Virus genome (UHGV): UHGV-0212646
Length of the DNA: 43,550 bases
Reading direction: 5' to 3' (one strand)
From: a virus
Below, in pieces: positions 5,168 through 42,291 of this stretch. Below the pieces are notes generated by a model, which saw nothing but the letters and a program-made list of their open reading frames with translations, searched no databases and was not told the origin of the DNA. Position 1 is the first letter of the stretch; every line of letters begins with the position of its first letter. The translations under genes were made by a program, and so were the position numbers.

Positions 5168-6646
5168 ATGCCGCCATTATCCACCAGTAATTCACAGACT
5201 TTGGAGATCGGCGCCGCCTACATCCGCGTCAGCACCGACGATCAGACAGAGCTTTCCCCGGATGCCCAGCTGCGTGTCATTCTTGATGCCGCCAAAGCGG
5301 ACGGGTTCGTGATCCCTAAAGAATATATCTTTGAAGAGAAGAAAGGCATATCCGGCCGGAAGGCTGACAACCGCCCGGAGTTCCAGCGTATGATCGCTAT
5401 TGCCAAGTCTCAGAAACCCGCTCCCTTCAAACGGCTGTACCTCTGGAAGTTTTCCCGATTCGCCCGGAATCAGGAGGAAAGCACCTTCTACAAGGGGATC
5501 TTACGAAAAAAGTGCGGAATCGAGATCAAAAGCATATCAGAGCCCATTATGGACGGAATGTTCGGCCGACTGATTGAAACGATTATCGAATGGTTTGACG
5601 AATACTATTCTTTTAACCTGTCCGGGGAGGTCATGCGCGGCATGACAGAAAAAGCCCTCCGGGAAGGCTATCAGACCTCCCCTTCTCTGGGATACAAGGC
5701 CGCCGGCGAGGGCAAACCATTTCTCATTGACGAGATGACTTACCCGATTGTGGAGTATATCTTCCGTACCTATCACGATGGCCGGGATATGACTGCCACT
5801 GCAAGGGCCGCCAACGCCATGGGCTACCGAACCCGCCACGGCAATCTCTTTGATCGTCGGGCAGTTTACCGCATTTTAACGAACCGTTTTTACAATGGAG
5901 AGGTTGTCTGGAACGGGATCACCTTTCAGGGATCGCATGAAACCCGCCCCGCCGTAACCTCCATTTACGAGAACGTCCAAAATCGGATAACATCTGAATA
6001 CCGCCCCCTCAAGCGCCGCGAGGCCTCTGCTAACGCGCATTGGCTGTCAGGGCTTTTAACCTGCAGCGTCTGTGGCAGCAGTCTGGGCTTTAACCGCTCC
6101 AACAATCAGAAAAAGCGTCCTGACTTCTTTCAATGCTGGAAGTACGCCAAGGGCGTCCACCCTGGTTCCTGCTGCGTATCTGCCCGGATTGCAGAGCAAA
6201 CCGTGCTGAGTTCGTTGGAAAATGCTATGGGGCAGAACTATCTTGAGTATGAATATATCCCGAAAACAGCTGTGGAAACACACGGAGAGGAGCTGGCTTT
6301 AAAAGAGGCTTTGGATCGGATCGCCATCAAAGAGCAGCGCATCCGGGAGGCATATGAAAATGAAATTGATACCCTGGAAGAATATAAGCAAAACAAAATC
6401 CGTCTGAATGTCGAACGGGAGCAGCTGACCGCCGCACTGGAACAACTTCGTCAGAAGATCCAGCAGTCCACATCCGCGCCGCCCAGTCAGGCCGAGGTCA
6501 TGGCCAAAATCTCCTGTGTGTATCAGGTGCTTTCTGATCAGGAAGTCGATAACGAAACCAAAGCCAATGCCCTCCGAGCCATCTGTAAACAGATCGTTTT
6601 TGACCGTGAAACCAGACGTTTTATCTTTTATTACTACACATCATAA
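5168..6646 (+). CDS. int: large serine recombinase (phage integrase type)
   Basis: Resolvase catalytic N-terminal domain (AAYIRVSTDDQ...), recombinase domain, Cys-rich zinc ribbon (CSVCGSS...CWKYAKGVHPGSC), and a C-terminal coiled coil. AAGGAGA SD. Confidence 0.9.
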   Translation: MPPLSTSNSQTLEIGAAYIRVSTDDQTELSPDAQLRVILDAAKADGFVIPKEYIFEEKKGISGRKADNRPEFQRMIAIAKSQKPAPFKRLYLWKFSRFARNQEESTFYKGILRKKCGIEIKSISEPIMDGMFGRLIETIIEWFDEYYSFNLSGEVMRGMTEKALREGYQTSPSLGYKAAGEGKPFLIDEMTYPIVEYIFRTYHDGRDMTATARAANAMGYRTRHGNLFDRRAVYRILTNRFYNGEVVWNGITFQGSHETRPAVTSIYENVQNRITSEYRPLKRREASANAHWLSGLLTCSVCGSSLGFNRSNNQKKRPDFFQCWKYAKGVHPGSCCVSARIAEQTVLSSLENAMGQNYLEYEYIPKTAVETHGEELALKEALDRIAIKEQRIREAYENEIDTLEEYKQNKIRLNVEREQLTAALEQLRQKIQQSTSAPPSQAEVMAKISCVYQVLSDQEVDNETKANALRAICKQIVFDRETRRFIFYYYTS

Positions 6647-9694: not shown

Positions 9695-9976
9695 TCAAAA
9701 AAGCATTGAGGCCGCCGCACTCACGACCGCCCCAATCAACGCCCCGATTAGCATTTCCCACTGCCGCCCCGGCTTGGCTTTCAGTTCCGTCACATCGTCT
9801 GTCAGCTGCCGGATGGAGCTATTCATGTGCTTAATCTCCTCCGTCTGCCGGGCCATCTCCAAAGCAAGTGTGTGTACGGCATCCACAATCTTCCCTACAC
9901 TGTCCATGCGATGTTTCAAAGATGCTATTTCATGCTTATAGCCTTCGAGCACTACCACAATTTCTTCATCCGTCAT
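9695..9976 (-). CDS. XhlA-like hemolysin/holin-associated protein
   Basis: Coiled-coil N-terminus plus C-terminal TM (MLIGALIGAVVSAAASMLF). Position matches PBSX xhlA. Confidence 0.65.
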   Translation of the reverse strand: MTDEEIVVVLEGYKHEIASLKHRMDSVGKIVDAVHTLALEMARQTEEIKHMNSSIRQLTDDVTELKAKPGRQWEMLIGALIGAVVSAAASMLF

Positions 9977-10260
9977 GCCTGTTCCTCCTTAATCAGCATA
10001 GGTTCATCCATCAGTCCTGAATCCGCCGGCGGTTCATATACGCTGCCGTCATTGCTCAGGTAGATTGTCTGGCCGTCAGTGCGGTACAGTGTATCGTATC
10101 CGCTTATATTGCCTGCCTCCAAGCCTCCGATTGTAAATGTGGTAATATCCCCCCATTCCTTTGGGATATTATCTGCAAACACAATCTGCAGCACGTTGGG
10201 GGCAGCTGGCATGATACGGATAATTTCATACTCAGTATCCTGGATCTTGATTTTTTCCAT
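9973..10260 (-). CDS. XkdW-like hypothetical tail-associated protein
   Basis: AAGGAAGGA SD. A YEPP motif and a position between the fibre and lysis genes, as in PBSX. Confidence 0.45.
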   Translation of the reverse strand: MEKIKIQDTEYEIIRIMPAAPNVLQIVFADNIPKEWGDITTFTIGGLEAGNISGYDTLYRTDGQTIYLSNDGSVYEPPADSGLMDEPMLIKEEQA

Positions 10261-10283
10261 TTTGCATCCTTCCTTTCTAATAA

Positions 10284-10676
10284 TTTGTATTTTTATGTAT
10301 TATAAAAGGCCCTTTCAGGCCCGGAATTTTCTTACATATTGTGCGCAATACCAACTCCTCAAAAATCGGCCACGCTCATGATGAACGATACTATACTGAG
10401 GCTGAGGTAAATAATCTTTTCAATACTTATCAGGGACTTCCTCAATATAGTATGGATCTTTTCAATATACAGAGCGGCGGCCGTCTGCTATATTATGATG
10501 CCAATACGAAAAACACGCCATACAAGGCTGGTATTACACAGGCATCTGAAGGTGTGGCTATTACAGTAGGTGACTGGGGGAACTTTATTACGTCTTTGGC
10601 AATACCGAAAGGCGATTCAAGACTATACATATACAGCCGCGCAAACAGTATAATCACAGACTGGAAAATGCTTTAA
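10284..10676 (+). other. promoterless, RBS-less alternative tail-fibre C-terminal cassette (convergent with the fibre gene)
   Basis: Frame open from 10284, with no SD. Encodes (LHIV)RNTNSSKIGHAHDERYYT..., mirroring LYTVLNTKSSKIGHTHDDRYHT in the middle of the fibre gene. The downstream ~95 aa diverge. Confidence 0.5.
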
Positions 10677-11383
10677 GTCCTACCAGAAATTTCCTTCCAT
10701 TCTCCATAGGATACTCCTGGAGTATGGAGTGACACAAACAGCCGCAGATCGTTGCTGATGGCAATCCGTGTTGTCCACATCTTGAGGAAACCAAATGTCA
10801 GGATAACACCGCCGTTTCCTTCTCCCTCTACTGGCCTGTGTGTAGCGTTATCCGCATAGATGTATATTCCTGGCGAGTTTGTATCCACGAGGCAATCCGA
10901 GACACTGGTTGCATTTTTAGCATAGAAAAGTTCGCTATCCTCCTGCTTTGTGTGATACCTGTCATCATGGGTATGTCCAATCTTAGAGCTCTTGGTATTG
11001 AGCACAGTATAAAGATCCATCAATACCTTTCCCTGAGCCGCCGACAGGGGCAGATCTGTCCGGTCAGTAACACAGTTGTTTACGATCTGTCCGATCAGGC
11101 AGACGCCGGTCATCCAATTCCTAAAATCTTCCGTAAACTTCTTCATCTTCCCCCAGCGTGTCCGGGCCTTTTCTTTTGCGGCCGGTACCGGGAAACTGTC
11201 TGATGATGCATCAAAGGCAGAAACCAGAGTGTCCGCGGTGTCGCCTCCAATGGAATCTACCTTATCTTTGTCCAATTCTTTCATGGTCTTATCAACGGTA
11301 TCCATATTTTCATTGATGACCTCTATCGAAATATACTCATTACTTTCTGGCTTTTTCAGGCCATAATTTTCTGTTGTATTCAT
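10673..11383 (-). CDS. tail fibre / receptor-binding protein
   Basis: XkdV position in the tail module. ATGA overlap with the upstream gene. The C-terminal ~105 aa are the variable part. Confidence 0.6.
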   Translation of the reverse strand: MNTTENYGLKKPESNEYISIEVINENMDTVDKTMKELDKDKVDSIGGDTADTLVSAFDASSDSFPVPAAKEKARTRWGKMKKFTEDFRNWMTGVCLIGQIVNNCVTDRTDLPLSAAQGKVLMDLYTVLNTKSSKIGHTHDDRYHTKQEDSELFYAKNATSVSDCLVDTNSPGIYIYADNATHRPVEGEGNGGVILTFGFLKMWTTRIAISNDLRLFVSLHTPGVSYGEWKEISGRT

Positions 11384-11913
11384 AAACCCACCGTCCTTAT
11401 CCCTTCCCAGGTGTATGCCGAAGCCTGCTTCCAGGTCAACGCCGCCACATCACCCCATGTGTTATAAATATATTCATACTCCACCGCCAGGTGGGCAGGC
11501 TTGATTTCTTCTATTGTCAGTTTCAAATCTGCCACATTACCTGGAATCCCCAGCGTTCCGACAAAGCGGATTACAAAACGATAATTGGCCGCATCCTCGA
11601 TCACTTCCACTTCGCCATTAGAATAACTGCCAGCCACATTTTTCACCATTTCCTTGGTAGTAGTACCCACCCCTGATATCTTCGCCCTGATTCGTTCCCT
11701 CCGAAAGTCATCAGGCTTTGATACGTCCACCTCCAGCCCTAAAAGCTGTTCGTATCGTGACAATAGACCCGACGCTGTAGATGCAAAACATTCCGAAATT
11801 GTACTGCTCAATCCGTTTTCCAGATCATCCGTCACTTCGGACAGAAGCGTCTGCAGAGTTTGCATAGTCACATTTTTATCATAATAATCCGGGAGAAGCT
11901 TAATCAGTTCCAA
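11380..11913 (-). CDS. phage tail protein, DUF2313 (XkdU/YmfQ-like)
   Basis: Sequence family and gene order. Confidence 0.6.
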   Translation of the reverse strand: MELIKLLPDYYDKNVTMQTLQTLLSEVTDDLENGLSSTISECFASTASGLLSRYEQLLGLEVDVSKPDDFRRERIRAKISGVGTTTKEMVKNVAGSYSNGEVEVIEDAANYRFVIRFVGTLGIPGNVADLKLTIEEIKPAHLAVEYEYIYNTWGDVAALTWKQASAYTWEGIRTVGL

Positions 11914-12928
11914 GTGTATTCACCTCCGTCAAATCAATAGTCCCTACTATAGGAATCTGCCTTTCCCCGATTACAACGTTTCCAGTTCCTTCATTCAGGA
12001 GAAACCCTTCAAAATCTTCTATACCCTGAACATCTAACAGCAGGCTGCCAAGTTTTGCATAGCTGATCTTATAGGTAATAAATACCGTTTCGCGCAGGAA
12101 CATCTGCACTGCCGTTTTATATGCCTTCAAGATATCTGCCAGCGTCTTGCTCCCATCCCTTAAGACTTTGGCCTTGATATTGATCTTAACCGCCTCAGGG
12201 CTTTTGACTGTCACTGCAGCGCCGATCGGACGCACGGTTTCAATATACGCCGCCACCATATCTGGCAAAGAAGAAGATATCTGTTTATTGCTGTCCACGA
12301 CCAGCACCGTAACAGTACCGGGACCATCCGCCAAAGGGAATACTTTAACAGCACCAGTGCCCGAAACCTCCAGAGCCCACTGTTGGTAATGATAGACGTT
12401 CCCGGATGTAGCCGGTAACCGAATCTTGGTGTATAAGCGTTCCCTCAGCGCTTCATCCGTTTCTTCATCCGTGCCAAGCGTAACAATGTCACCCAGTGAT
12501 GCTGTCACGCCTGTGATGTTTGAAACAGGCTGCATGGATCCGCTGTACTGATTCCCGATCACTCCGTATGTTTCGCACTTTGCACAGTATTCCGTGTCGC
12601 TCCTTTTTTCCGTCACCACATAAACCAGATTATTTATTCCCCACCGGGTCCCGTTTTCTACCGGGCCTGACGTTGTCATCTTACGTACAGCCCTGGTGGC
12701 GGGTTTGCGGTAAATATTATAGGCATCTGCTGCCCGGTCCAGATACTCACCAAGGGCTGTATCAGGAAAGACCAGATCCACAAAATTGTCAAGTTGGAAG
12801 TTCTGTTGGGTCAGAAAATATGCACATGGTGCCAGAGCGTCATAAATAACACTGCCTTCCCGCTTGTCCACATCGTTTGGCACCTTATCAAGCATGGCCC
12901 GCAGCAATTCTTCATATGTCATTTTCAC
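11900..12928 (-). CDS. baseplate J-like protein (XkdT-like)
   Basis: Size, gene order and Baseplate_J-like sequence features. Confidence 0.75.
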   Translation of the reverse strand: MKMTYEELLRAMLDKVPNDVDKREGSVIYDALAPCAYFLTQQNFQLDNFVDLVFPDTALGEYLDRAADAYNIYRKPATRAVRKMTTSGPVENGTRWGINNLVYVVTEKRSDTEYCAKCETYGVIGNQYSGSMQPVSNITGVTASLGDIVTLGTDEETDEALRERLYTKIRLPATSGNVYHYQQWALEVSGTGAVKVFPLADGPGTVTVLVVDSNKQISSSLPDMVAAYIETVRPIGAAVTVKSPEAVKINIKAKVLRDGSKTLADILKAYKTAVQMFLRETVFITYKISYAKLGSLLLDVQGIEDFEGFLLNEGTGNVVIGERQIPIVGTIDLTEVNTLGTD

Positions 12929-13311
12929 ACCGTCATCTCCTTTTCTATCTGCAATTCCCCGTAAATACTTGATACATCAAAGGTACACCGGCATGTATCC
13001 CCGGAAAATTCAAACTCGAAGCCATCCACCTCGCGGATCCGGTCATCCTGCTGAAGCGCTTCTTCTACCATTCGCCGCAGTTCTGCCCTTACATATGACC
13101 GTTCCTCTCCGAGCAGTTCCTTCCAGGCAATCCCATACTTAAAGCTGTAGATGGGATATTCATACTGCTCTGTAGACAATATCTTGTAAATGGCCTGTTT
13201 TAAAGCCTCTAACTCATCCACAAATCCTTCTATTTTTGTATCTGACAGTTTATATGTCCTGGTCTCATATGTCTGCTCCTGAACTGCCAGATCGGTTGTT
13301 AGTCCTGCCAT
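12925..13311 (-). CDS. DUF2634 tail protein (XkdS-like)
   Basis: Gene order and size. Confidence 0.55.
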   Translation of the reverse strand: MAGLTTDLAVQEQTYETRTYKLSDTKIEGFVDELEALKQAIYKILSTEQYEYPIYSFKYGIAWKELLGEERSYVRAELRRMVEEALQQDDRIREVDGFEFEFSGDTCRCTFDVSSIYGELQIEKEMTV

Positions 13312-13313
13312 GG

Positions 13314-13589
13314 TCAGCCTCCTGTCTGGTACGGTTTTCCGATGATTTCCAAAATATAGTATTCCTTCCCCCGGTCATTGCGCAGGATCCGCACCTTATC
13401 CCCCGACACCAGACGGTCTTTCATATTTCCTGTAACCATACTCATTGGAACCGGGATCTTTCCAATCACAACCGCGCTTCCCGTGTATGTCCCCATAAGC
13501 ACCGCAGCCGGTTTCCGGCATTTCATATAGTTATCTACCACCGTCTTTACGAGATCAAAAAACTCCTGATACGCCCCTTTATCATTCAC
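13314..13589 (-). CDS. DUF2577 tail protein (XkdR-like)
   Basis: Gene order and size (~90 aa). Confidence 0.5.
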
Positions 13590-14559
13590 CCGTCATCACC
13601 TCCACCGACATTGTATGTGTGGGAAGAAAATCGTGCGTGACCTTTTTAACGATCAGTCTCTGGTTTAATGCAATATTCCCAATACTGCCATATATGCTAT
13701 TCCCTGCCCGCACCCGAAGATCACCCAGACAGTCCAGTTTCATAGTTTCCTTCTCATGGTTATACAGTTTCAATAGATTATTAGCCCGCTCCTGGGCTTT
13801 GGCCGCATTATCAATACCCGATGGGGATGTTTCCAAATACTGAAGCAGTCCATATCGATTCACCGCGTCCTGATCGTGGGCGGCTCCCACGTCAATCTGC
13901 CCGCCGCTTTCGTTCTTCCACACCACCTTGATCTGATTGTAATAATCATCGTCTATGGACTTTTCCCAGCTGTATCCTGTACATAGGCTATTATCACCCA
14001 GAATCAGCGGTAGCTGGAGGTTTCGCATATTCCACAGACACACCTTCCCATATTCATCACGCAGGCAATATTTCTCCTGCGTCCCAATCAGGGTATCCGA
14101 TGCTGCCTGTACAATATGATCCAACCATGATTTTTCATAGTCAGCAATCGTGGGAATGATAAAGCCGGGATCCTCGATGGTTCCCGGCGTCATACTCTGA
14201 AATGTACACATATTTTCCACTAAATTCTTCAGTGTTCCATTCTCCAGTACAATGATATCCTTGTTTTTTGCCCTCCGCAGTTGGTCGTATGCCTTAATAG
14301 TTATGGTCTGCCCCTCTCCGCCATCCCGGCTGTCCCCGGATACCTTATAAACGGATCCGAAGAAAATACCATCCACCTGGTTGTTTTCCGTCACGCGAAC
14401 AACATCCCCATTTTGCAGTACCAGCCCGTCACTGATATAGGAGATGTCCAGGCTGCTGGCTCCCTCATTCAGCGTTTCTGACCAGGAAACCTCTTTGCAC
14501 ATTTCCGAAATATCATAAATATATCCCTGGCTTTCTGCCAGAATTTCCATTCGCAACAC
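13582..14559 (-). CDS. XkdQ/YqbQ-like tail protein (late control D-like)
   Basis: Gene order, size, family-like sequence. Confidence 0.6.
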
Positions 14560-14562
14560 CTC

Positions 14563-15225
14563 CTATGCCGGGATCGTAAGCACCTGTCCAGGATAGATCA
14601 AGTTGGGGTTCTTGATTCCTGGATTAGCTGCCGCAATTTTCTTGTATTGGCTGCCATTTCCATAATACTTCTTTGCAATCCCCCAAAGGGTATCGCCAGA
14701 CTGGACGGCATGGGTCTTGTTTTCTGTCACTGCGGGATTGGTTTCTGCAGACGCAGACGTATCTTCCTGCTTTACTGTAGCTGCTGCCGTCTGTACCGCT
14801 ACATACCGTTTTCCCGGTGCCTTGTATTCCAAAAGCTTGATCGTCAGGTACTTATCCCCCTCTTCTCCAGCTTTTTCTACAGCCTCCACGCTTTTTACCA
14901 GTACCATAATACTGATATCATCTGTAATATCGTTAGAGGCAATAAAGCGGATTGGCTTTAAGTCCTTCTGGGCCTTACGAAACATTTTTTCATAGTAATC
15001 CGCATCGGCCTTTGCACCGGGGTTCATATAGTGATAATCCTGACTGGGAAATTCCGCTTCAAAACTAAATTCTTCCAGGCCATAATAAGATGGGACAGAA
15101 ACCTGTCCTGTCCCAAGTACCTGGTAAGTCTCTATATTCAATTCCCGATTCCTCTTGATCTCCTCTGGATTGACGGGGAGCTTGTATTTCTTATTCCCAT
15201 ATTTAAAATAAACTGAATATGACAT
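14563..15225 (-). CDS. LysM-domain tail protein (XkdP-like)
   Basis: C-terminal LysM: HAVQSGDTLWGIAKKYYGNGSQYKKIAAANPGIKNPNLIYPGQVLTIP. Confidence 0.75.
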   Translation of the reverse strand: MSYSVYFKYGNKKYKLPVNPEEIKRNRELNIETYQVLGTGQVSVPSYYGLEEFSFEAEFPSQDYHYMNPGAKADADYYEKMFRKAQKDLKPIRFIASNDITDDISIMVLVKSVEAVEKAGEEGDKYLTIKLLEYKAPGKRYVAVQTAAATVKQEDTSASAETNPAVTENKTHAVQSGDTLWGIAKKYYGNGSQYKKIAAANPGIKNPNLIYPGQVLTIPA

Positions 15226-17852: not shown

Positions 17853-17871
17853 GGAGGACGTTCTTTTAGGT

Positions 17872-18126
17872 TTATGCAGTTCTTCGTTCTTCATAGCCAC
17901 GAATAAAACAATATAACATTCTATTTAATTTCGGATCATTCATCCTTAAGACCTTCAAGACAAGCGACGCCTGTTCAAGTTCCAATTCTGACAATTCAGA
18001 AAATCTTTTACTATCATCCATCTTAGCGCAAATGTTAACTAATAGGCTAATATGCTCTAAAACCATTTTCCGTCGTACCCTGCGACAATTTTGAGTTATT
18101 TCCTCTCGTATTTCCATCATTTTCAT
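17872..18126 (-). CDS. small putative regulator (84 aa), translationally coupled to the antirepressor gene
   Basis: AGGAGGTG SD. TAATG stop/start overlap with the upstream gene. Confidence 0.4.
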   Translation of the reverse strand: MKMMEIREEITQNCRRVRRKMVLEHISLLVNICAKMDDSKRFSELSELELEQASLVLKVLRMNDPKLNRMLYCFIRGYEERRTA

Positions 18127-18956
18127 TACGCCACCTCCTGATAACAAACCCGGCACTTATTAACACTGCCATTTGCAAGCCGGAACTCGATCAATGAGGG
18201 ATAGCCGTTCTCTTCCAGCCATTCCTGAACCTTTTCGAGAACACTTTCTTTGTACTGAACGGTCACACCGTCATGGCCGTTCCGGCTGTAAGCTGTCTTT
18301 ACAATTTCATCTGTAAAAAGGTCGATTTTCTGGATGATGGCGCTTACTGCTTTATCATGTGGTCTACCGGACTCAGAATAGATGCCGAGTTTCTTTGCCA
18401 TAGTAGTGCAGTCCCATAACGTCTGTGTAGTGCTGTCTGTAATCAACGGAATCTGAATGTCAATGTCGGCCTGTTCCTTGTAAAGCCGTTTCGCCTCTGC
18501 CGCGATGAACATCGGGTCAACTCCTGCATCTTTGAAAATGCCGCTGACGGTCTTCACAAGCATGTTGGCGGCGGAGAGGTTCTTTTTCTTCTTTTCGGGC
18601 TTCTGGGTGATGCCCTCTCTGATCGTTTTCTCCTTATACTTCTTTTCCACCTGGATGAAGTAACGGCGTACTTGCTTGCCTTTCTCATTACGCTCCAACA
18701 TGGCCATTTCCTTGGCTGTATCAAGTTTAATGATATGGTCTATTTTAGTCTGTCCGGAAGGTGCTAAAATTTTAGCGGCTTCATAATCCTCTTTTTCTAC
18801 TGCCTCACAATCGCCCAAACGGTTGCGAATCCAATCGCGATAATTACTCTTTACTTCCAAAACTGAATGAAGTTCTGAACCATAAACTACTTTCTCGCCG
18901 GTGCTGGTTTCGTATACTGGTACTAACTCATTTTCAATTACTTTTAAATTCTGCAT
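18126..18956 (-). CDS. phage antirepressor, AntA N-terminal domain + KilA-C domain
   Basis: AAAGGAG SD, then ATG at 18956. LVPVYETSTGEKVVYGSELHSVLEV...RRYFIQVEKKY is AntA-like. Confidence 0.7.
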   Translation of the reverse strand: MQNLKVIENELVPVYETSTGEKVVYGSELHSVLEVKSNYRDWIRNRLGDCEAVEKEDYEAAKILAPSGQTKIDHIIKLDTAKEMAMLERNEKGKQVRRYFIQVEKKYKEKTIREGITQKPEKKKKNLSAANMLVKTVSGIFKDAGVDPMFIAAEAKRLYKEQADIDIQIPLITDSTTQTLWDCTTMAKKLGIYSESGRPHDKAVSAIIQKIDLFTDEIVKTAYSRNGHDGVTVQYKESVLEKVQEWLEENGYPSLIEFRLANGSVNKCRVCYQEVA

Positions 18957-18981
18957 AATAAAAACTCCTTTCAAAAAATAC

Positions 18982-19011
18982 TTGCCAAAAGGAGAAATAC
19001 AGTGCTATTAT
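18982..19011 (+). promoter_or_regulatory. promoter TTGCCA-N18-TGcTATTAT for the convergent sRNA-b
   Basis: Extended -10. Confidence 0.45.
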
Positions 19012-19017
19012 TTATAT

Positions 19018-19082
19018 ACTCCTTTTGGGGTGTGGAGCAACCATTTCACTTTGGTCGGTGGGGTTGCTCCTCTTTTTTTATT
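19018..19082 (+). ncRNA. candidate cis-antisense sRNA-b ending in the terminator hairpin ggagcaacc-N19-ggttgctcc-T9
   Basis: The + strand hairpin plus U-run overlaps the stop codon of RHH gene b on the minus strand. Confidence 0.4.
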
Positions 19083-19254
19083 TTAGGTCATCCTCCAGTT
19101 TTTTAATTCCCCGTCTTATTGCTTCTGTCTTTGCCACTTTTTCCTGTTCACAGTATCGTTCAAGAATATTGTTACTTTCAATATCAAGCCTTACATGAAT
19201 AGGTTTTGACTTTGGATTCTCTACTGGTGGTCTTCCTGTTCTTGGGCTCATCAT
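19078..19254 (-). CDS. ribbon-helix-helix (CopG/Arc-like) small DNA-binding protein with an RTGRP AT-hook-like N-terminus, paralogue b
   Basis: MMSPRTGRPPVENPKSKPIHVRLDIESNNILERYCEQEKVAKTEAIRRGIKKLEDDLK. Upstream TTGACT-N17-TATATT promoter on the minus strand. Confidence 0.55.
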   Translation of the reverse strand: MMSPRTGRPPVENPKSKPIHVRLDIESNNILERYCEQEKVAKTEAIRRGIKKLEDDLK

Positions 19255-19334
19255 ATCACCCACTTTCTGTAGCCCATAAATATAATATAATTGATGTAGC
19301 CCAATAAGTCAAGCACTGTTTTCTCAAATTCTTC

Positions 19335-19363
19335 TTGAAAGAGGCTTCCTTTGCTGATATACT
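19335..19363 (+). promoter_or_regulatory. promoter TTGAAA-N17-TATACT for the convergent sRNA-a
   Basis: Near-consensus. Confidence 0.5.
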
Positions 19364-19369
19364 ATATTT

Positions 19370-19441
19370 ATCAGAGAGAAACCTCTTTGGTGTATTAGAG
19401 ATTCGTGATACTTGGTAGGTGGAACGAATCTCTATTTTTTT
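19370..19441 (+). ncRNA. candidate cis-antisense sRNA-a ending in the terminator hairpin agagattcg-N19-cgaatctct-T7
   Basis: Overlaps the stop codon of RHH gene a. Loop ACUUGGUAGGUGG is conserved with sRNA-b, and the stems covary. Confidence 0.4.
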
Positions 19442-19605
19442 ATTTTGGCATATACTTCACGGATTCCTTGACGAATTACATCGGATTTTGACATTCCTGT
19501 TTCTTTACAGCAATACTCTAAAATCTCTATATCTTCATCTGACATTCTGATTCTAGTCTCGTGCTTTTTTGGATTATCCGTTGGTCTGCCTGTTCTTGGC
19601 GACAT
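19432..19605 (-). CDS. ribbon-helix-helix small DNA-binding protein, paralogue a (57 aa)
   Basis: GGAGGAGGG SD, then ATG at 19605. Product MSPRTGRPTDNPKKHETRIRMSDEDIEILEYCCKETGMSKSDVIRQGIREVYAKIKK. Below the ORF-track cutoff. Confidence 0.55.
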   Translation of the reverse strand: MSPRTGRPTDNPKKHETRIRMSDEDIEILEYCCKETGMSKSDVIRQGIREVYAKIKK

Positions 19606-19703
19606 TTTCTACCCTCCTCCTAATATATAAGTGTAGGGTTTCAGTACCCAACAGCCAGTTGGGACTTAATCCTCTCATTGTTTAAGCTGTATAATGATTA
19701 GGC

Positions 19704-19898
19704 ATTGGTATGACGACACCTCCTAGGACCACTTTAGGTGTCCGCAAGAAAGCCAGTCAGCCAGCCTATCATTTGCAGCCGTTCGATTTATGCAGGTTGG
19801 ACTGTCCTTGTACATGTCCGTTTGATACCCCAGGAGATTGAATAAGCAGTGAGGAATGCTGGATACCATGCAAATTCATTTTCAGGAGGTACATTAGG
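19704..19898 (+). ncRNA. candidate IS110 bridge/guide RNA region (5' flank of the transposase), downstream of a TGtATAAT -10
   Basis: Structured ~190-nt leader, e.g. gacacctcctaggaccactttaggtgtc. Assignment rests on knowledge of the IS110 family, not on homology. Confidence 0.3.
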
Positions 19899-21113
19899 AT
19901 GTACAACGCTGTCGGTATTGATGTCTCAAAGGGCAAGAGCACCATCGCAGTCCTGCAGCCCGGAGGCGTCATTGTCAGGAAACCCTTTGATGTTTTTCAC
20001 ACTTCCCAATCCTTAAAAGAACTATCAAATTATCTGGCTTCACTTGAAGGGGATACAAGGATTGTAATGGAGTGTACTGGCAGATACCATGAGTCCATGG
20101 CTAACTCCCTCTCTAATGCCGGGTTTTTTGTAACTGTCGTCAATCCGCATCTGATTAAAAACTTTGGTAACAATACGTTGCGCAAGGTCAAATCTGACCC
20201 TGCTGATGCTAAAAAGATAGCACGCTATACCCTTGACAACTGGGCTGAACTGCGGCAGTATTCATGTATGGACAATACACGTAACCAATTGAAAACCTTA
20301 AATTCACAATTCAGCTTCTTTATGAAGCAAAAGGTTGCCGCAAAGGCAAACCTGATTGCACTGTTGGATAATACATACCCCGGTGTAAATAAACTGTTCA
20401 ACAGCCCTGCCCGTGAAGATGGCAGTGAAAAATGGGTCGATTACGCTTACTCATTCTGGCATGTGGACTGTGTCCGTAAAACCGGCTTGAAAGCTTTTAC
20501 AGTGCGCTATGAAGCTTTCTGCAGGAAACACCATTATATTTATCAGCCTTCCAAACCAGAAGAACTGTTTAACGCCTCTAAAGAGCTTGTTGCCGTGTTC
20601 CCAAAGGAGACGTCCTATAAGCTTCTGATCCAGCAGAGTATCCAGCAGCTCAATCTTGCCTCTGCCCATATCGAACAGCTCCGCAGGGAGATGAATGCAC
20701 TTGCTTCCACGCTCCCAGAATACGAGGTTGTCATGGGCATGTATGGCGTGGGCAAAACTTACGGTCCCCAGCTCATTGCTGAGATTGGCGATGTTTCAAG
20801 ATTTACCCATCGGGAGGCAATCACTGCTTTTGCAGGTGTCGATCCCGGTGTGGAGCAGTCAGGGCAGCACAACTCAAAGAGCAACAAAGCTTCCAAATGT
20901 GGAACCGGCAGGCTCCGTAAGACCCTGTTCCAGGTCATGACCACCCTGCTCCAGAATGCCCCGGAGAATGAACCTGTCTACCAGTTTCTGAACCGGAAGC
21001 GTTCCGAAGGAAAACCTTACTATGTGTACATGACTGCTGGTGCGAATAAGTTCCTCCGCATCTACTACGGCAAGGTAAAAGCACATCTGCGCAGTCTGGA
21101 ACAAAACGAATAA
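19899..21113 (+). CDS. IS110 family transposase (DEDD N-terminal domain + Transposase_20 C-terminal domain)
   Basis: N-terminus AVGIDVSKGKSTIAVL. C-terminus GVGKTYGPQLIAEIGDVSRFTHREAITAFAGVDPGVEQSG. Confidence 0.9.
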   Translation: MYNAVGIDVSKGKSTIAVLQPGGVIVRKPFDVFHTSQSLKELSNYLASLEGDTRIVMECTGRYHESMANSLSNAGFFVTVVNPHLIKNFGNNTLRKVKSDPADAKKIARYTLDNWAELRQYSCMDNTRNQLKTLNSQFSFFMKQKVAAKANLIALLDNTYPGVNKLFNSPAREDGSEKWVDYAYSFWHVDCVRKTGLKAFTVRYEAFCRKHHYIYQPSKPEELFNASKELVAVFPKETSYKLLIQQSIQQLNLASAHIEQLRREMNALASTLPEYEVVMGMYGVGKTYGPQLIAEIGDVSRFTHREAITAFAGVDPGVEQSGQHNSKSNKASKCGTGRLRKTLFQVMTTLLQNAPENEPVYQFLNRKRSEGKPYYVYMTAGANKFLRIYYGKVKAHLRSLEQNE

Positions 21114-21367
21114 TCATTCCGTCTATTACGGCTTTCTTTTTGACCGGCTGATGAGGCGGTCTTAGAGTTGTGCCATAAAATCACTTCACAAAAATTTTCA
21201 AAAAGTGCTTGACTTTTTATTAGCAGGCTTTCTTTTGGTGACACATATATGATATTATATGGTGACACAAAAGTCAAGAGGTTTTTCATCTTCTTCACGC
21301 CTACCTCGTGAAATCAAAAAGGCCCAGCCTTTCGCTGAACCTCTTTCTCATTAAATATAATTGATTT

Positions 21368-34078: not shown

Positions 34079-34114
34079 GGAACGTCTGGGTGGAGATCCC
34101 TAAACCAGGCTAAC

Positions 34115-34186
34115 GGATCCTACAGGAATCGAACCTGTGACACGGTGGTTAACAGCCACCTGCTCTGCCAGCTGAGCTAAGGATCC
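34115..34186 (-). tRNA. tRNA-Asn (anticodon GTT), phage-encoded, no encoded CCA
   Basis: Cloverleaf hand-folded: acceptor GGATCCT/AGGATCC, D-stem GCTC/GAGC, anticodon stem GGTGG/CCACC with loop CTGTTAA, T-loop TTCGATT. Confidence 0.8.
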
Positions 34187-41213: not shown

Positions 41214-41639
41214 CTAGTTAAACGGCAATTCTTCGTCTTCTACATCATCCGGAATATCCATGAACCCATCTCCTATATCTTTTCCCTGGGATTGGGCCTG
41301 CCTGTCCCCCTGTTTACTGGATCCACTCCTGCTTTCTACAAATTCTGCTGTGTCCACCACAACATCTGTTGTATAGACTTTTTTTCCTTCCTGATTTGTA
41401 TAAGATCCTGTCTGTATCCGGCCAGTCAGGCCCAGCCGCTGGCCTTTAAAGAACCATTTTTCCAGAAATTCCGCTGTTTTTCCAAATGCTACACAGGAAA
41501 TAAAATCAGCGTTTTCTCCCCCTTCCTTTTTTATTCTTCGGTCCACTGCAAGGGTAAATCTTGTTACTGTAGATCCATTGTCCAAGTAACGGACTTCCGG
41601 GTCTCTGGTCAATCTCCCGACCAACTGAACATTATTCAT
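41214..41639 (-). CDS. ssb: single-stranded DNA-binding protein
   Basis: OB-fold sequence and an acidic C-terminal tip DEELPFN. Confidence 0.85.
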   Translation of the reverse strand: MNNVQLVGRLTRDPEVRYLDNGSTVTRFTLAVDRRIKKEGGENADFISCVAFGKTAEFLEKWFFKGQRLGLTGRIQTGSYTNQEGKKVYTTDVVVDTAEFVESRSGSSKQGDRQAQSQGKDIGDGFMDIPDDVEDEELPFN

Positions 41640-42291
41640 TCTTTGGCTCCTCCCTCTTTTTCGTATAACTTCAACTTTTCCATGCAGTCCTTATACTGCT
41701 CTGTATCCATATCCGTAATTGCAGTCAACTTATACATGGAAAGGATTTTATCCATCTTAAGGCCCTTGGCACTGTAACGTTCTGTCATAGACTGCAACGT
41801 ACGTATCATAGCTTCCGTAACCTTTCCTGCCTGTCCCTGGACTTTCCGTGTGTCATTTTTCCTGCTGCCCTTAGATGTCCCTTTCCCCGTTCCCCCGGAG
41901 GCATTATTCTGATTATCTGCATCCTTTACATCATCAATACAAAACAGGCCATTCAGTGCATATTTCCTGGCATAGCTGCTCGTACTGCCAGTAACCTGTG
42001 AAACGTCCATACCTTTTTTTCCTGTTCTTCACGGGCATATGCCGTATTTTCCACAGTTTCTCCAGATTCGCAGTCTATGAACCTAGCAGTGGCCTTTATG
42101 TAATACCGATCTCCAATCAATACTAACTCATCCCCCACCACCAGCGCCGCCTTCACTGCTTTCAGGAGCGGCTTCACTGCCTCCTGGATATCTTCACAAT
42201 TCCGATAATTATAACCGCCAAATTTGTTGTACTGGTTCTTGGGAGCCTTCAAATCGGATTGTACCTGCTGCAGTTTCTCATGTATGTTCAT
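41636..42291 (-). CDS. ERF-family single-strand annealing protein, split by a frameshift at an A7G tract (N part 41953..42291, C part 41636..42010)
   Basis: N part: LQQVQSDLKAPKNQYNKFGGYNYRNCEDIQEAVKPLL. C part: TGSTSSYARKYALNGLFCIDD. A -1 slip on A_AAA_AAG joins them in frame. Confidence 0.6.

Follow-up and report, generated by a model that had tools for sequence, protein, structure and literature searches.

The tail-fibre locus of UHGV virus genome UHGV-0212646 raises the question of whether the C-terminal part of the fibre is exchanged by inversion of a short DNA segment and, if it is, which recombinase carries out the exchange. The stretch analysed, 43,550 nucleotides (nt) in length and referred to here as the window, is from a prophage of a gut Lachnospiraceae bacterium. 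Comparison with related sequences indicates that the locus is very probably an orphan two-tip derivative of a fibre shufflon of the tyrosine recombinase type, with both recombination sites and both tip cassettes intact. Related contigs and loci are denoted below by L numbers and proteins by P numbers.

The fibre gene, on the minus strand, contains LMDLYTVLNTKSSKIGHTHDDRYHT, and its product includes a AAQGKVLMDLYTVLNTKSSKIGHTHDDRYHT stretch, after which comes a tip of about 90 aa. A plus-strand frame that starts LHIVRNTNSSKIGHAHDERYYT is open from 10332 to a stop codon at 10674-10676 and encodes a different tip, the two convergent stops overlapping with an offset of 1 nt (10673-10675 for the fibre). 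The sole start codon of this open reading frame (ORF) is a GTG that lies within an inverted repeat, and neither sequence inspection nor a promoter scan revealed any element resembling a Shine-Dalgarno (SD) sequence or a promoter 5' of it. The repeat, ATA[T/C]TGTGC[G/T]CAATACCAA, was established by direct alignment and shuffling, as a general repeat scan paired each arm with a weaker partner. Positions 10336-10354 match the reverse complement of 10992-11010 at 17 of 19 positions; inward of the repeat the similarity persists at the codon level only, and outward it is gone. No other inverted pair of at least 17/19 was found in 9900-11500, and none arose in 200 shuffles. The 15-nt core TGTGC[G/T]CAATACCAA is present in exactly two copies in the whole window, at 10992-11006 (-) and 10340-10354 (+), in inverted orientation. 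Hence, the switch in the window comprises a single segment with two cassettes and two sites, and the interior is taken up by the two convergent tips, with no chaperone ORF. An earlier note on this DNA had described a fibre gene with a convergent, start-less alternative C-terminus, which the ORF map confirms, and a 14/16 inverted repeat, which is real and extends to the 19 positions given above; it had also proposed that inverting approximately 10339-11007 would join the constant N-terminus in frame to the alternative tip. The frame is correct, and the fusion is found in nature, as follows.

The predicted fusion protein was built and used as query against a protein collection. The junction, LYTVLNT followed by NSSKIGHAHDERYYT, is present in P0001, P0002, P0004 and P0257. 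Three of these, P0001 (414 aa, from Enterocloster alcoholdehydrogenati), P0002 (404 aa) and P0004 (362 aa), carry LMDLYTVLNT followed by NSSKIGHAHDERYYTEAEV and have a tip identical or near-identical to that encoded by the silent cassette of the window (tip B), each behind a different N-terminal module; the protein encoded by cassette B is 100% identical to the expressed C-terminus of P0001. The fourth, P0257 (237 aa, in the P0001 cluster), consists of the N-terminus of the window's fibre, identical over 130 aa, and tip B, and so is the predicted fusion itself.

The evidence for inversion at the DNA level comes from comparison of natural contigs. L001-L006, L027 and L058 have the segment 10336-11010 in the opposite orientation between flanks that remain collinear (97.4-98.8% identity). 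In L001-L006, the contigs that encode P0001, the inverted segment is 98.4-98.7% identical and the flanks 11263..10962 and 10384..9900 are collinear. The contig encoding P0257 (L058), which belongs to the window's own lineage, matches 15108..10962 at 98.9% over 4.1 kb and then continues with 10336..11000 inverted. Hence, the predicted inversion distinguishes natural members of the window's phage lineage. Four further contigs, L007-L010, are 99.6-99.9% identical to the window and share its orientation, and two with a different tip (L023 and L024) agree exactly with the window as far as 10991 and again from 10354. The features of the switch are listed in Table 1.

Table 1. Features of the fibre switch and its immediate surroundings in the window
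Feature	Position	Strand	Details
Tail-fibre gene	10673..11383	-	236 aa; constant codons 1 to ~130; expressed tip A is the C-terminal ~104 residues
Proximal site R1, within coding sequence	10992..11010	-	TAT ACT GTG CTC AAT ACC AA = Y T V L N T; core TGTGCTCAATACCAA
Tip cassette A, ON	10673..10991	-	ON or OFF in relatives
Tip cassette B, silent	10355..10676	+	convergent with fibre gene; without start codon or SD of its own
Distal site, R4-type outer flank	10336..10354	+	core TGTGCGCAATACCAA
Invertible interior	10355..10991		637 bp; 675 bp with both sites
Terminator-like hairpin just past distal site, fibre strand	10307..10322	-	consensus match only
Conserved 95-aa gene, fixed downstream flank of switch	9973..10260	-	collinear in every related locus

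Upstream of the fibre gene are genes for a Baseplate_J protein (11900..12928) and a Mu Gp48-like protein (11380..11913), and on its 3' side the 95-aa gene is followed by an XhlA-like gene, a holin gene and a CHAP endolysin gene. An Rfam scan of the window returned one tRNA only and no switch-associated RNA; the tRNA gene, at 34114-34186 (-), maps to the phage's early or regulatory region.

A four-site array with a tyrosine recombinase in close relatives

Close relatives hold a bigger array at the same locus, with a recombinase gene and four tip cassettes, A to D (L011-L018, in which four cores were mapped, and L026). In L011-L018, approximately 2.2 kb separates the fibre gene from the 95-aa gene and holds a gene for a 331-aa protein with PF00589 and PF13495 domains, the strand of which varies among the contigs. 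The order is constant fibre, R1(+), tips A and B facing one another, R2(-), the recombinase gene, R3(+), tips C and D facing one another, R4(-) and the lysis genes, such that R1 ends the constant part, R2 and R3 bracket the recombinase gene and R4 precedes the 95-aa gene. Pairwise comparison revealed three independently inverting segments, S1 (tips A and B), S2 (~1.2 kb, the recombinase gene) and S3 (tips C and D), each seen in both orientations at 99-100% identity; S1 and S3 differ between L011 and L014, while S2 alone differs between L014 and L015, in which all blocks are 100% identical.

The same core heads all four tips in L011-L018 and is followed by K SSKIGHTHDD in A, N SSKIGHAHDE in B, K AAKTDKINTF in C and K LINKSITATYD in D. 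The R1 sequence is the constant/variable junction in all related loci, and database proteins have the four tips fused in frame to four distinct fibre N-termini: the MAWSGL backbone, with an identical 290-aa N-terminal part, bears tip A in P0044 (403 aa), B in P0002 and C in P0062; the short MNTTEN backbone bears A in P0008, B in P0257, C in P0030 and D in P0033; the MGVYKK backbone A in P0039, B in P0001 and C in P0057; and the MATGKG backbone A in P0045, B in P0004 and D in P0075. In L026, the window's backbone has tip C on and is followed by a convergent cassette and then the recombinase gene. Recombination between oppositely oriented cores would flip any of the three segments, or the whole array, so that any of the four tips could be joined in frame after LMDLYTVLNT.

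The top NCBIfam matches of the 331-aa protein are XerA, XerD and XerC, and its sequence includes the R...HxxR...H...Y residues expected of the family. Public sources name it merely "tyrosine-type recombinase/integrase" or "XerD", and homologues sharing 65-97% identity are common in Enterocloster and Hungatella genomes. We infer that this protein is the invertase. In a phage with the MAWSGL backbone (L019-L022, e.g. L019 11131-15970), an insertion has cut the tip C cassette short (P0062); the inserted element encodes a tandem set of three large serine recombinases (507, 547 and 539 aa), beyond which lie non-phage genes.

The extent of the exchange can be read from more than 25 loci, in which R1 is always TGTGCTC and all other cores are TGTGCGC, regardless of the cassette attached. 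The two single-base differences in the repeat remain with the flanks, only the sequence inward of CAATACCAA switches sides, and cassette-specific sequence begins right after CAATACCAA. The fixed T/G difference and the point at which the cassettes begin therefore place both strand exchanges within the 9 bp CAATACCAA, and an exchange zone of this length is consistent with the 6-8 bp spacers of tyrosine recombinases. A conserved arm (TGTGCGC and some outer bases) is present on the outer side only, the inner arm being cassette-specific, and hence the site is asymmetric, as is the sfx site of R64. In L032 (6264-6943), all three cores have CAATACTAA, indicating that partner sites covary in the exchange zone. 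In L023 (8370-8930), the exchange zone of R1 is mutated to CAATACTAA, the distal core has CAATACCAA and the partner cassette is an 80-nt remnant. The switches in L023-L025 look locked: in each, only one tip is complete, its partner cassette is reduced to a remnant, and the spacer of R1 is mutated whereas the distal core facing it is not. Three truncated fibre products (P0037, which is on a 1.4-Mb contig, P0058 and P0070) have the junction in another frame (LYCAQYQAK) and may represent frame-shifted or aberrant core junctions.

Variant codons across loci include 8 synonymous and 1 non-synonymous in tip A and 3 and 2, respectively, in tip B (11 versus 3 in total), an excess that holds regardless of ON or OFF state and so indicates that silent cassettes are kept functional. 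Tips A and B share 35% identity (E = 7e-11) and, from this level of sequence similarity, are distant homologues. AlphaFold2 models the tip domain, residues ~157-233, as a small beta domain with a predicted local distance difference test (pLDDT) score of ~80-86, the full-length fibre model being poor beyond the tip (mean pLDDT 53). The top fold matches of the tip model, with weak E-values, are all fibre or receptor-binding proteins (pyocins R1 and R2, phi11, phage K and phi812), and PDB sequence searches, whether the fibre or tip B was the query, produced nothing meaningful. We are highly confident that what the switch swaps is the receptor-binding tip at the C-terminus of a tail fibre of myovirus type, and the tips would then set host receptor specificity.

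Distribution in Lachnospiraceae prophages and signs of activity

The family to which this switch belongs in all likelihood consists of tyrosine recombinase shufflons in prophages of Lachnospiraceae, namely Enterocloster, Hungatella and their relatives. A constant region ending LPLSAAQGKxLMDLYTVLNT(K/N) is common to ~2,000 protein clusters, and dozens of unrelated C-termini are joined at LMDLYTVLNT(K/N). In a survey of one genome per species, 27 fibre loci were found, spread over Enterocloster, Hungatella, Lachnoclostridium, Pilosibacter and unnamed Lachnospiraceae, and in 11 of them a homologue of the recombinase is encoded 0.3-2 kb past the 3' end of the fibre gene. A second core class, ACTCAATTGTATAGTGA / TCAATTGTATAGTGA, encoding YTQLYSD, is present in L045 (6144-9286) in four copies oriented + - + -, with a tyrosine recombinase that is 30% identical lying between sites 2 and 3; the architecture is thus the same and the site sequence is another.

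Many contigs end at or close to the cores. Five of the 27 stop at most ~110 nt from the junction, two contigs (L017 and L058) stop inside a core, and one of 1,226 bp (L057) has both ends exactly at inverted cores. In 24 of the 120 top recombinase clusters, the longest contig is 1.13-1.28 kb, which is the size of the recombinase segment S2. Such assembly breaks at cores suggest that more than one arrangement was present within a sample.

Searches at both the DNA and the protein level found no record carrying the fibre among 50,697 deposited phage genomes, and literature searches turned up no account of a comparable system in Clostridia or Lachnospiraceae phages. Terrisporobacter phage TPELB_ph1 (L055 3908-4903) and Clostridium perfringens phage phiCp-D (L056 3833-4810) each have a gene for a XerD-like "integrase", 33-36% identical, between the last tail gene and the holin gene, and in TPELB_ph1 there is another, large integrase as well. 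A check for inverted repeats flanking these two XerD-like genes gave none that was convincing.

Lachnospiraceae such as Enterocloster and Hungatella are abundant in the gut and their phages are almost uncultured. Programmed diversification of host range would be widespread in the prophages of this family, with a bearing on host-range prediction from metagenomes, and the system would account for the assembly breaks at the fibre locus. Annotation would improve because silent cassettes are now called as small hypothetical genes. The system is also a potential source of tools, namely a compact tyrosine recombinase together with its 15-nt site, and naturally occurring receptor-binding tips that can be interchanged.

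Loss of the recombinase and rival explanations

The window is equivalent to L015 minus 1,842 bp, measured core to core from R2 to R4 (core positions 11531 and 13373 in the relative). Alignment of the two sequences gives two collinear blocks, which overlap at the repeat and leave out the whole stretch from the R2 core to the R4 core, namely the recombinase gene and tips C and D. The distal site of the window is accordingly composite, with the inner side of R2 (leading into tip B) and the outer flank of R4, GGAATTTTCTTACATA, which is identical to the R4 flank in the four-site arrays of L011-L018. Since R2 and R4 point the same way, the window is either the product of a site-specific deletion between direct repeats or the state that preceded integration of a circle bearing the recombinase gene and tips C and D. 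In the former case, the recombinase is missing because of a precise 1.84-kb site-to-site deletion. A tblastn search of the window with the recombinase yielded no match or remnant, and Pfam scans of the window's ORFs revealed no tyrosine recombinase and no small serine recombinase; the sole protein with a Resolvase domain is a 492-aa large serine recombinase encoded 4 kb from the segment. The recombinase-less two-cassette form is also found in L001-L006, L027, L054 and L061, the last being a further copy with tip A on, from among 4 contigs recovered when IMG/VR was scanned with the R1 junction.

The window copy would flip only if a recombinase acted on it in trans, for instance one from a related prophage in the same host, and would otherwise be frozen with tip A on; for this particular copy, flipping in trans and freezing appear about equally probable. 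The MGVYKK backbone is informative here, because its recombinase-less, two-cassette form occurs in both orientations, with tip A on in L054 and tip B on in L001 and in L027 (a two-site form that is flipped relative to L054), and these share 99.5% identity over 3.7 kb upstream. Such a pattern would be expected had the segment inverted in trans once the recombinase was gone, though two independent deletions may instead have produced the two orientations. In L054 (1-1800), the tip-A-ON copy adjoins a gene for an MFS transporter, with a truncated YQBQ-like baseplate gene alongside, and L054 may be a degraded prophage or a chimeric contig. Excision from site to site would release a circle carrying the recombinase gene and two tip cassettes. 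That the orphan is flipped by the tyrosine recombinase of a co-resident shufflon prophage and that excised circles also re-integrate at the cores of other phages is, taken jointly, a tentative proposal that we think rather unlikely. Were it true, one prophage would set the host range of another, and there would be an integron-like traffic of fibre tips among Lachnospiraceae phages; the orphan in the window offers a concrete case in which to examine whether the invertase of one prophage acts on another.

Several points weigh against an orphan of an active shufflon. The window encodes neither a tyrosine recombinase nor a small serine invertase, and so its own copy may be static. The evidence for inversion comes from comparison of natural contigs rather than from one clonal population of the window's phage, and the contig from the window's lineage with tip B on (L058) stops inside the distal core, short of the region that could show a recombinase. 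The role of the 331-aa protein as invertase is suggested by its position, family and co-occurrence with the array. Contig ends at cores could come from several related prophages in one sample, and one contig (L063) has a core at one end only.

The strongest alternative is that the segment is a relic, locked with tip A on when the recombinase was lost and with cassette B as a silent remainder, and that the differences in orientation among recombinase-less loci arose from independent deletions in ancestors whose switches stood in different states. We consider this quite possible, if somewhat short of an even chance. It agrees with the lack of a candidate invertase in the window, with the retention of the window's orientation in all four of the close relatives with readable context (L007-L010) and with the existence of the more decayed forms in L023-L025. 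However, cassette B is intact and its protein is identical to expressed copies, both cores are the same as those in active arrays, and tip B is on both in a member of the window's lineage (L058) and in part of the recombinase-less MGVYKK group. Recombinase homologues are, moreover, sufficiently common in Enterocloster and Hungatella for a supply in trans to be plausible.

General homologous recombination, by host RecA or a phage ERF protein, across the ~60-bp partly similar inverted coding stretches is another candidate cause of the inversion, and similarity at the codon level does reach ~50 bp inward of the core in a phage that encodes an ERF-family annealing protein. We regard it as very improbable, as the breakpoints in more than 25 loci all fall inside the same 9 bp and the T/G difference 1 bp away stays put, the sites beside the recombinase segment and tips C and D share the 15-nt core alone and yet recombine, the window's ERF gene is split into two ORFs, and relatives have a tyrosine recombinase inside the array. 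The chance that the plus-strand ORF is simply a separate gene, with a repeat that reflects chance sharing of peptide motifs, is close to nil. Gene callers do give a 111-aa product from the GTG in the repeat (e.g. P0256), but it is preceded by no SD or promoter, the repeat is above chance by the shuffling test and by the two core copies in the window, and the same cassette is fused in frame to the constant region on four fibre backbones.

A recombinase encoded in the window could also be responsible. The earlier note was right that a Gin/Hin-type invertase is absent from the window and wrong that the 492-aa serine integrase (5168-6646) is the only recombinase there, as a transposase of the IS110 family (19899-21113) and the split ERF gene (41636-42291) are also present; nothing links either of the latter to the switch. 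One member of the IS110 family is Piv, the pilin invertase of Moraxella, and inversion between inverted sites is within the reach of large serine recombinases, which lends this explanation some general plausibility. It is nonetheless highly unlikely, even a shade more so than homologous recombination. The asymmetric 15-nt core with its 9-bp exchange zone suits a tyrosine recombinase site, and the shuffling relatives (L011-L018) have a tyrosine recombinase within the array, for which reason the large serine integrase was rejected as the invertase; in addition, no serine recombinase is encoded in the 10-kb downstream flank of L014. The Piv-like transposase was rejected on the same ground and because the 3.4-kb island in which it lies (17865-21289) is missing from L023, which is 98-99% identical.

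This accessory island is located between the tail-tube side and the tail-chaperone genes. It contains a 94-aa ORF, a gene for an AntA-like antirepressor (18126-18974), two small RHH-like ORFs and the IS110-family RNA-guided transposase gene, which has ~280 nt of non-coding DNA before it; no record came up in an exact look-up of the gene adjoining the IS110 element. The ERF-family single-strand-annealing gene is split into overlapping ORFs at 41953-42291 and 41636-42010, each covering half of the Pfam model, and this is likely a frameshift or a pseudogene.

Comparison with known systems

A constant N-terminus, convergent C-termini between inverted repeats and host-range switching are shared with the G segment of Mu (Gin), the C segment of P1 (Cin), e14 (Pin) and p15B (Min). 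The Mu G-segment likeness drawn in the earlier note thus stands for the geometry and fails otherwise, the recombinase of the relatives not being Gin-like. Those systems have a small serine invertase beside the segment, whereas no ~190-aa gene of the resolvase/invertase family is adjacent to the segment in the window or beside it in the shuffling relatives, which carry a tyrosine recombinase. Gin/Cin-type sites are 26 bp long and dyad-symmetric and are served by a Fis-dependent enhancer. The conserved part of the site here, judged from the mapped cores, is 15 nt and one-sided and does not resemble the dyad-symmetric gix, cix and hix. Mu-type segments also carry alternative chaperone genes, U and U', which have no counterpart in the segment here.

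The shufflon of the R64/IncI1 plasmids, in which the tyrosine recombinase Rci acts on sfx sites to exchange the tips of pilV, is closer, and the remark in the earlier note that the repeat resembles sfx cores pointed in the right direction, the relatives using a tyrosine recombinase on an asymmetric core. Both systems have a short conserved spacer with one conserved arm, here the outer side and core with exchange confined to CAATACCAA, segments that invert singly or in groups, and an in-frame swap of an adhesin C-terminus that sets partner or host specificity. They differ in that R64 is a conjugative plasmid with a pilus adhesin as target, whereas the target here is a phage baseplate fibre, and in that Rci is encoded outside the shufflon, whereas the recombinase of the relatives is encoded inside the array and has XerA, XerD and XerC as its best family matches. 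Rci is reported to avoid deletions between direct repeats; here, unlike that behaviour, a precise deletion product exists in the form of the window.

A still nearer counterpart is the Rin shufflon of Bifidobacterium breve and Bifidobacterium longum prophages, where an armless XerD-like tyrosine recombinase is the proposed invertase, 11-bp asymmetric rix repeats lie at the constant/variable junction and before each cassette, and alternative C-termini of the receptor-binding protein are exchanged, with inversions seen on comparing prophages and in virion DNA (Mavrich et al. 2018, PMC6109161). That study also described a second, two-cassette inversion without an adjacent recombinase, for which a trans-acting invertase was proposed (PMC6109161), and the recombinase-less two-cassette state of the window corresponds to it. 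A Rin shufflon is found in Eggerthella lenta prophages too (PMC8778435). The likeness extends to a phage-encoded XerD-like recombinase, which here is in the relatives, to short asymmetric repeats and to exchange of the receptor-binding protein C-terminus. The window itself has the start-less C-terminal cassettes after a constant part, the short crossover site at the junction and at the head of each cassette and, among the natural contigs compared, inversions with breakpoints at the repeats. A XerC/D-like recombinase in or next to the array and multiple segments or more than two cassettes are not features of the window; the recombinase is present in L011-L018 and L026, and relatives have three segments and four cassettes. 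The hosts of Rin are Actinobacteria, whereas those here are Lachnospiraceae (Firmicutes), and Rin acts on siphovirus receptor-binding proteins with TP901-1-like tips, whereas the fibre here belongs to a contractile-tail baseplate. The Rin recombinase gene flanks the cassette array, while that of the relatives occupies an invertible segment of its own with a convergent pair of cassettes on either side, and the cores, TTCCCTAACCC for Rin and TGTGCGCAATACCAA here, are unrelated, the recombinases being likened by family. Rin is the closest published system, and the locus described here adds a new host group and a new fibre family.

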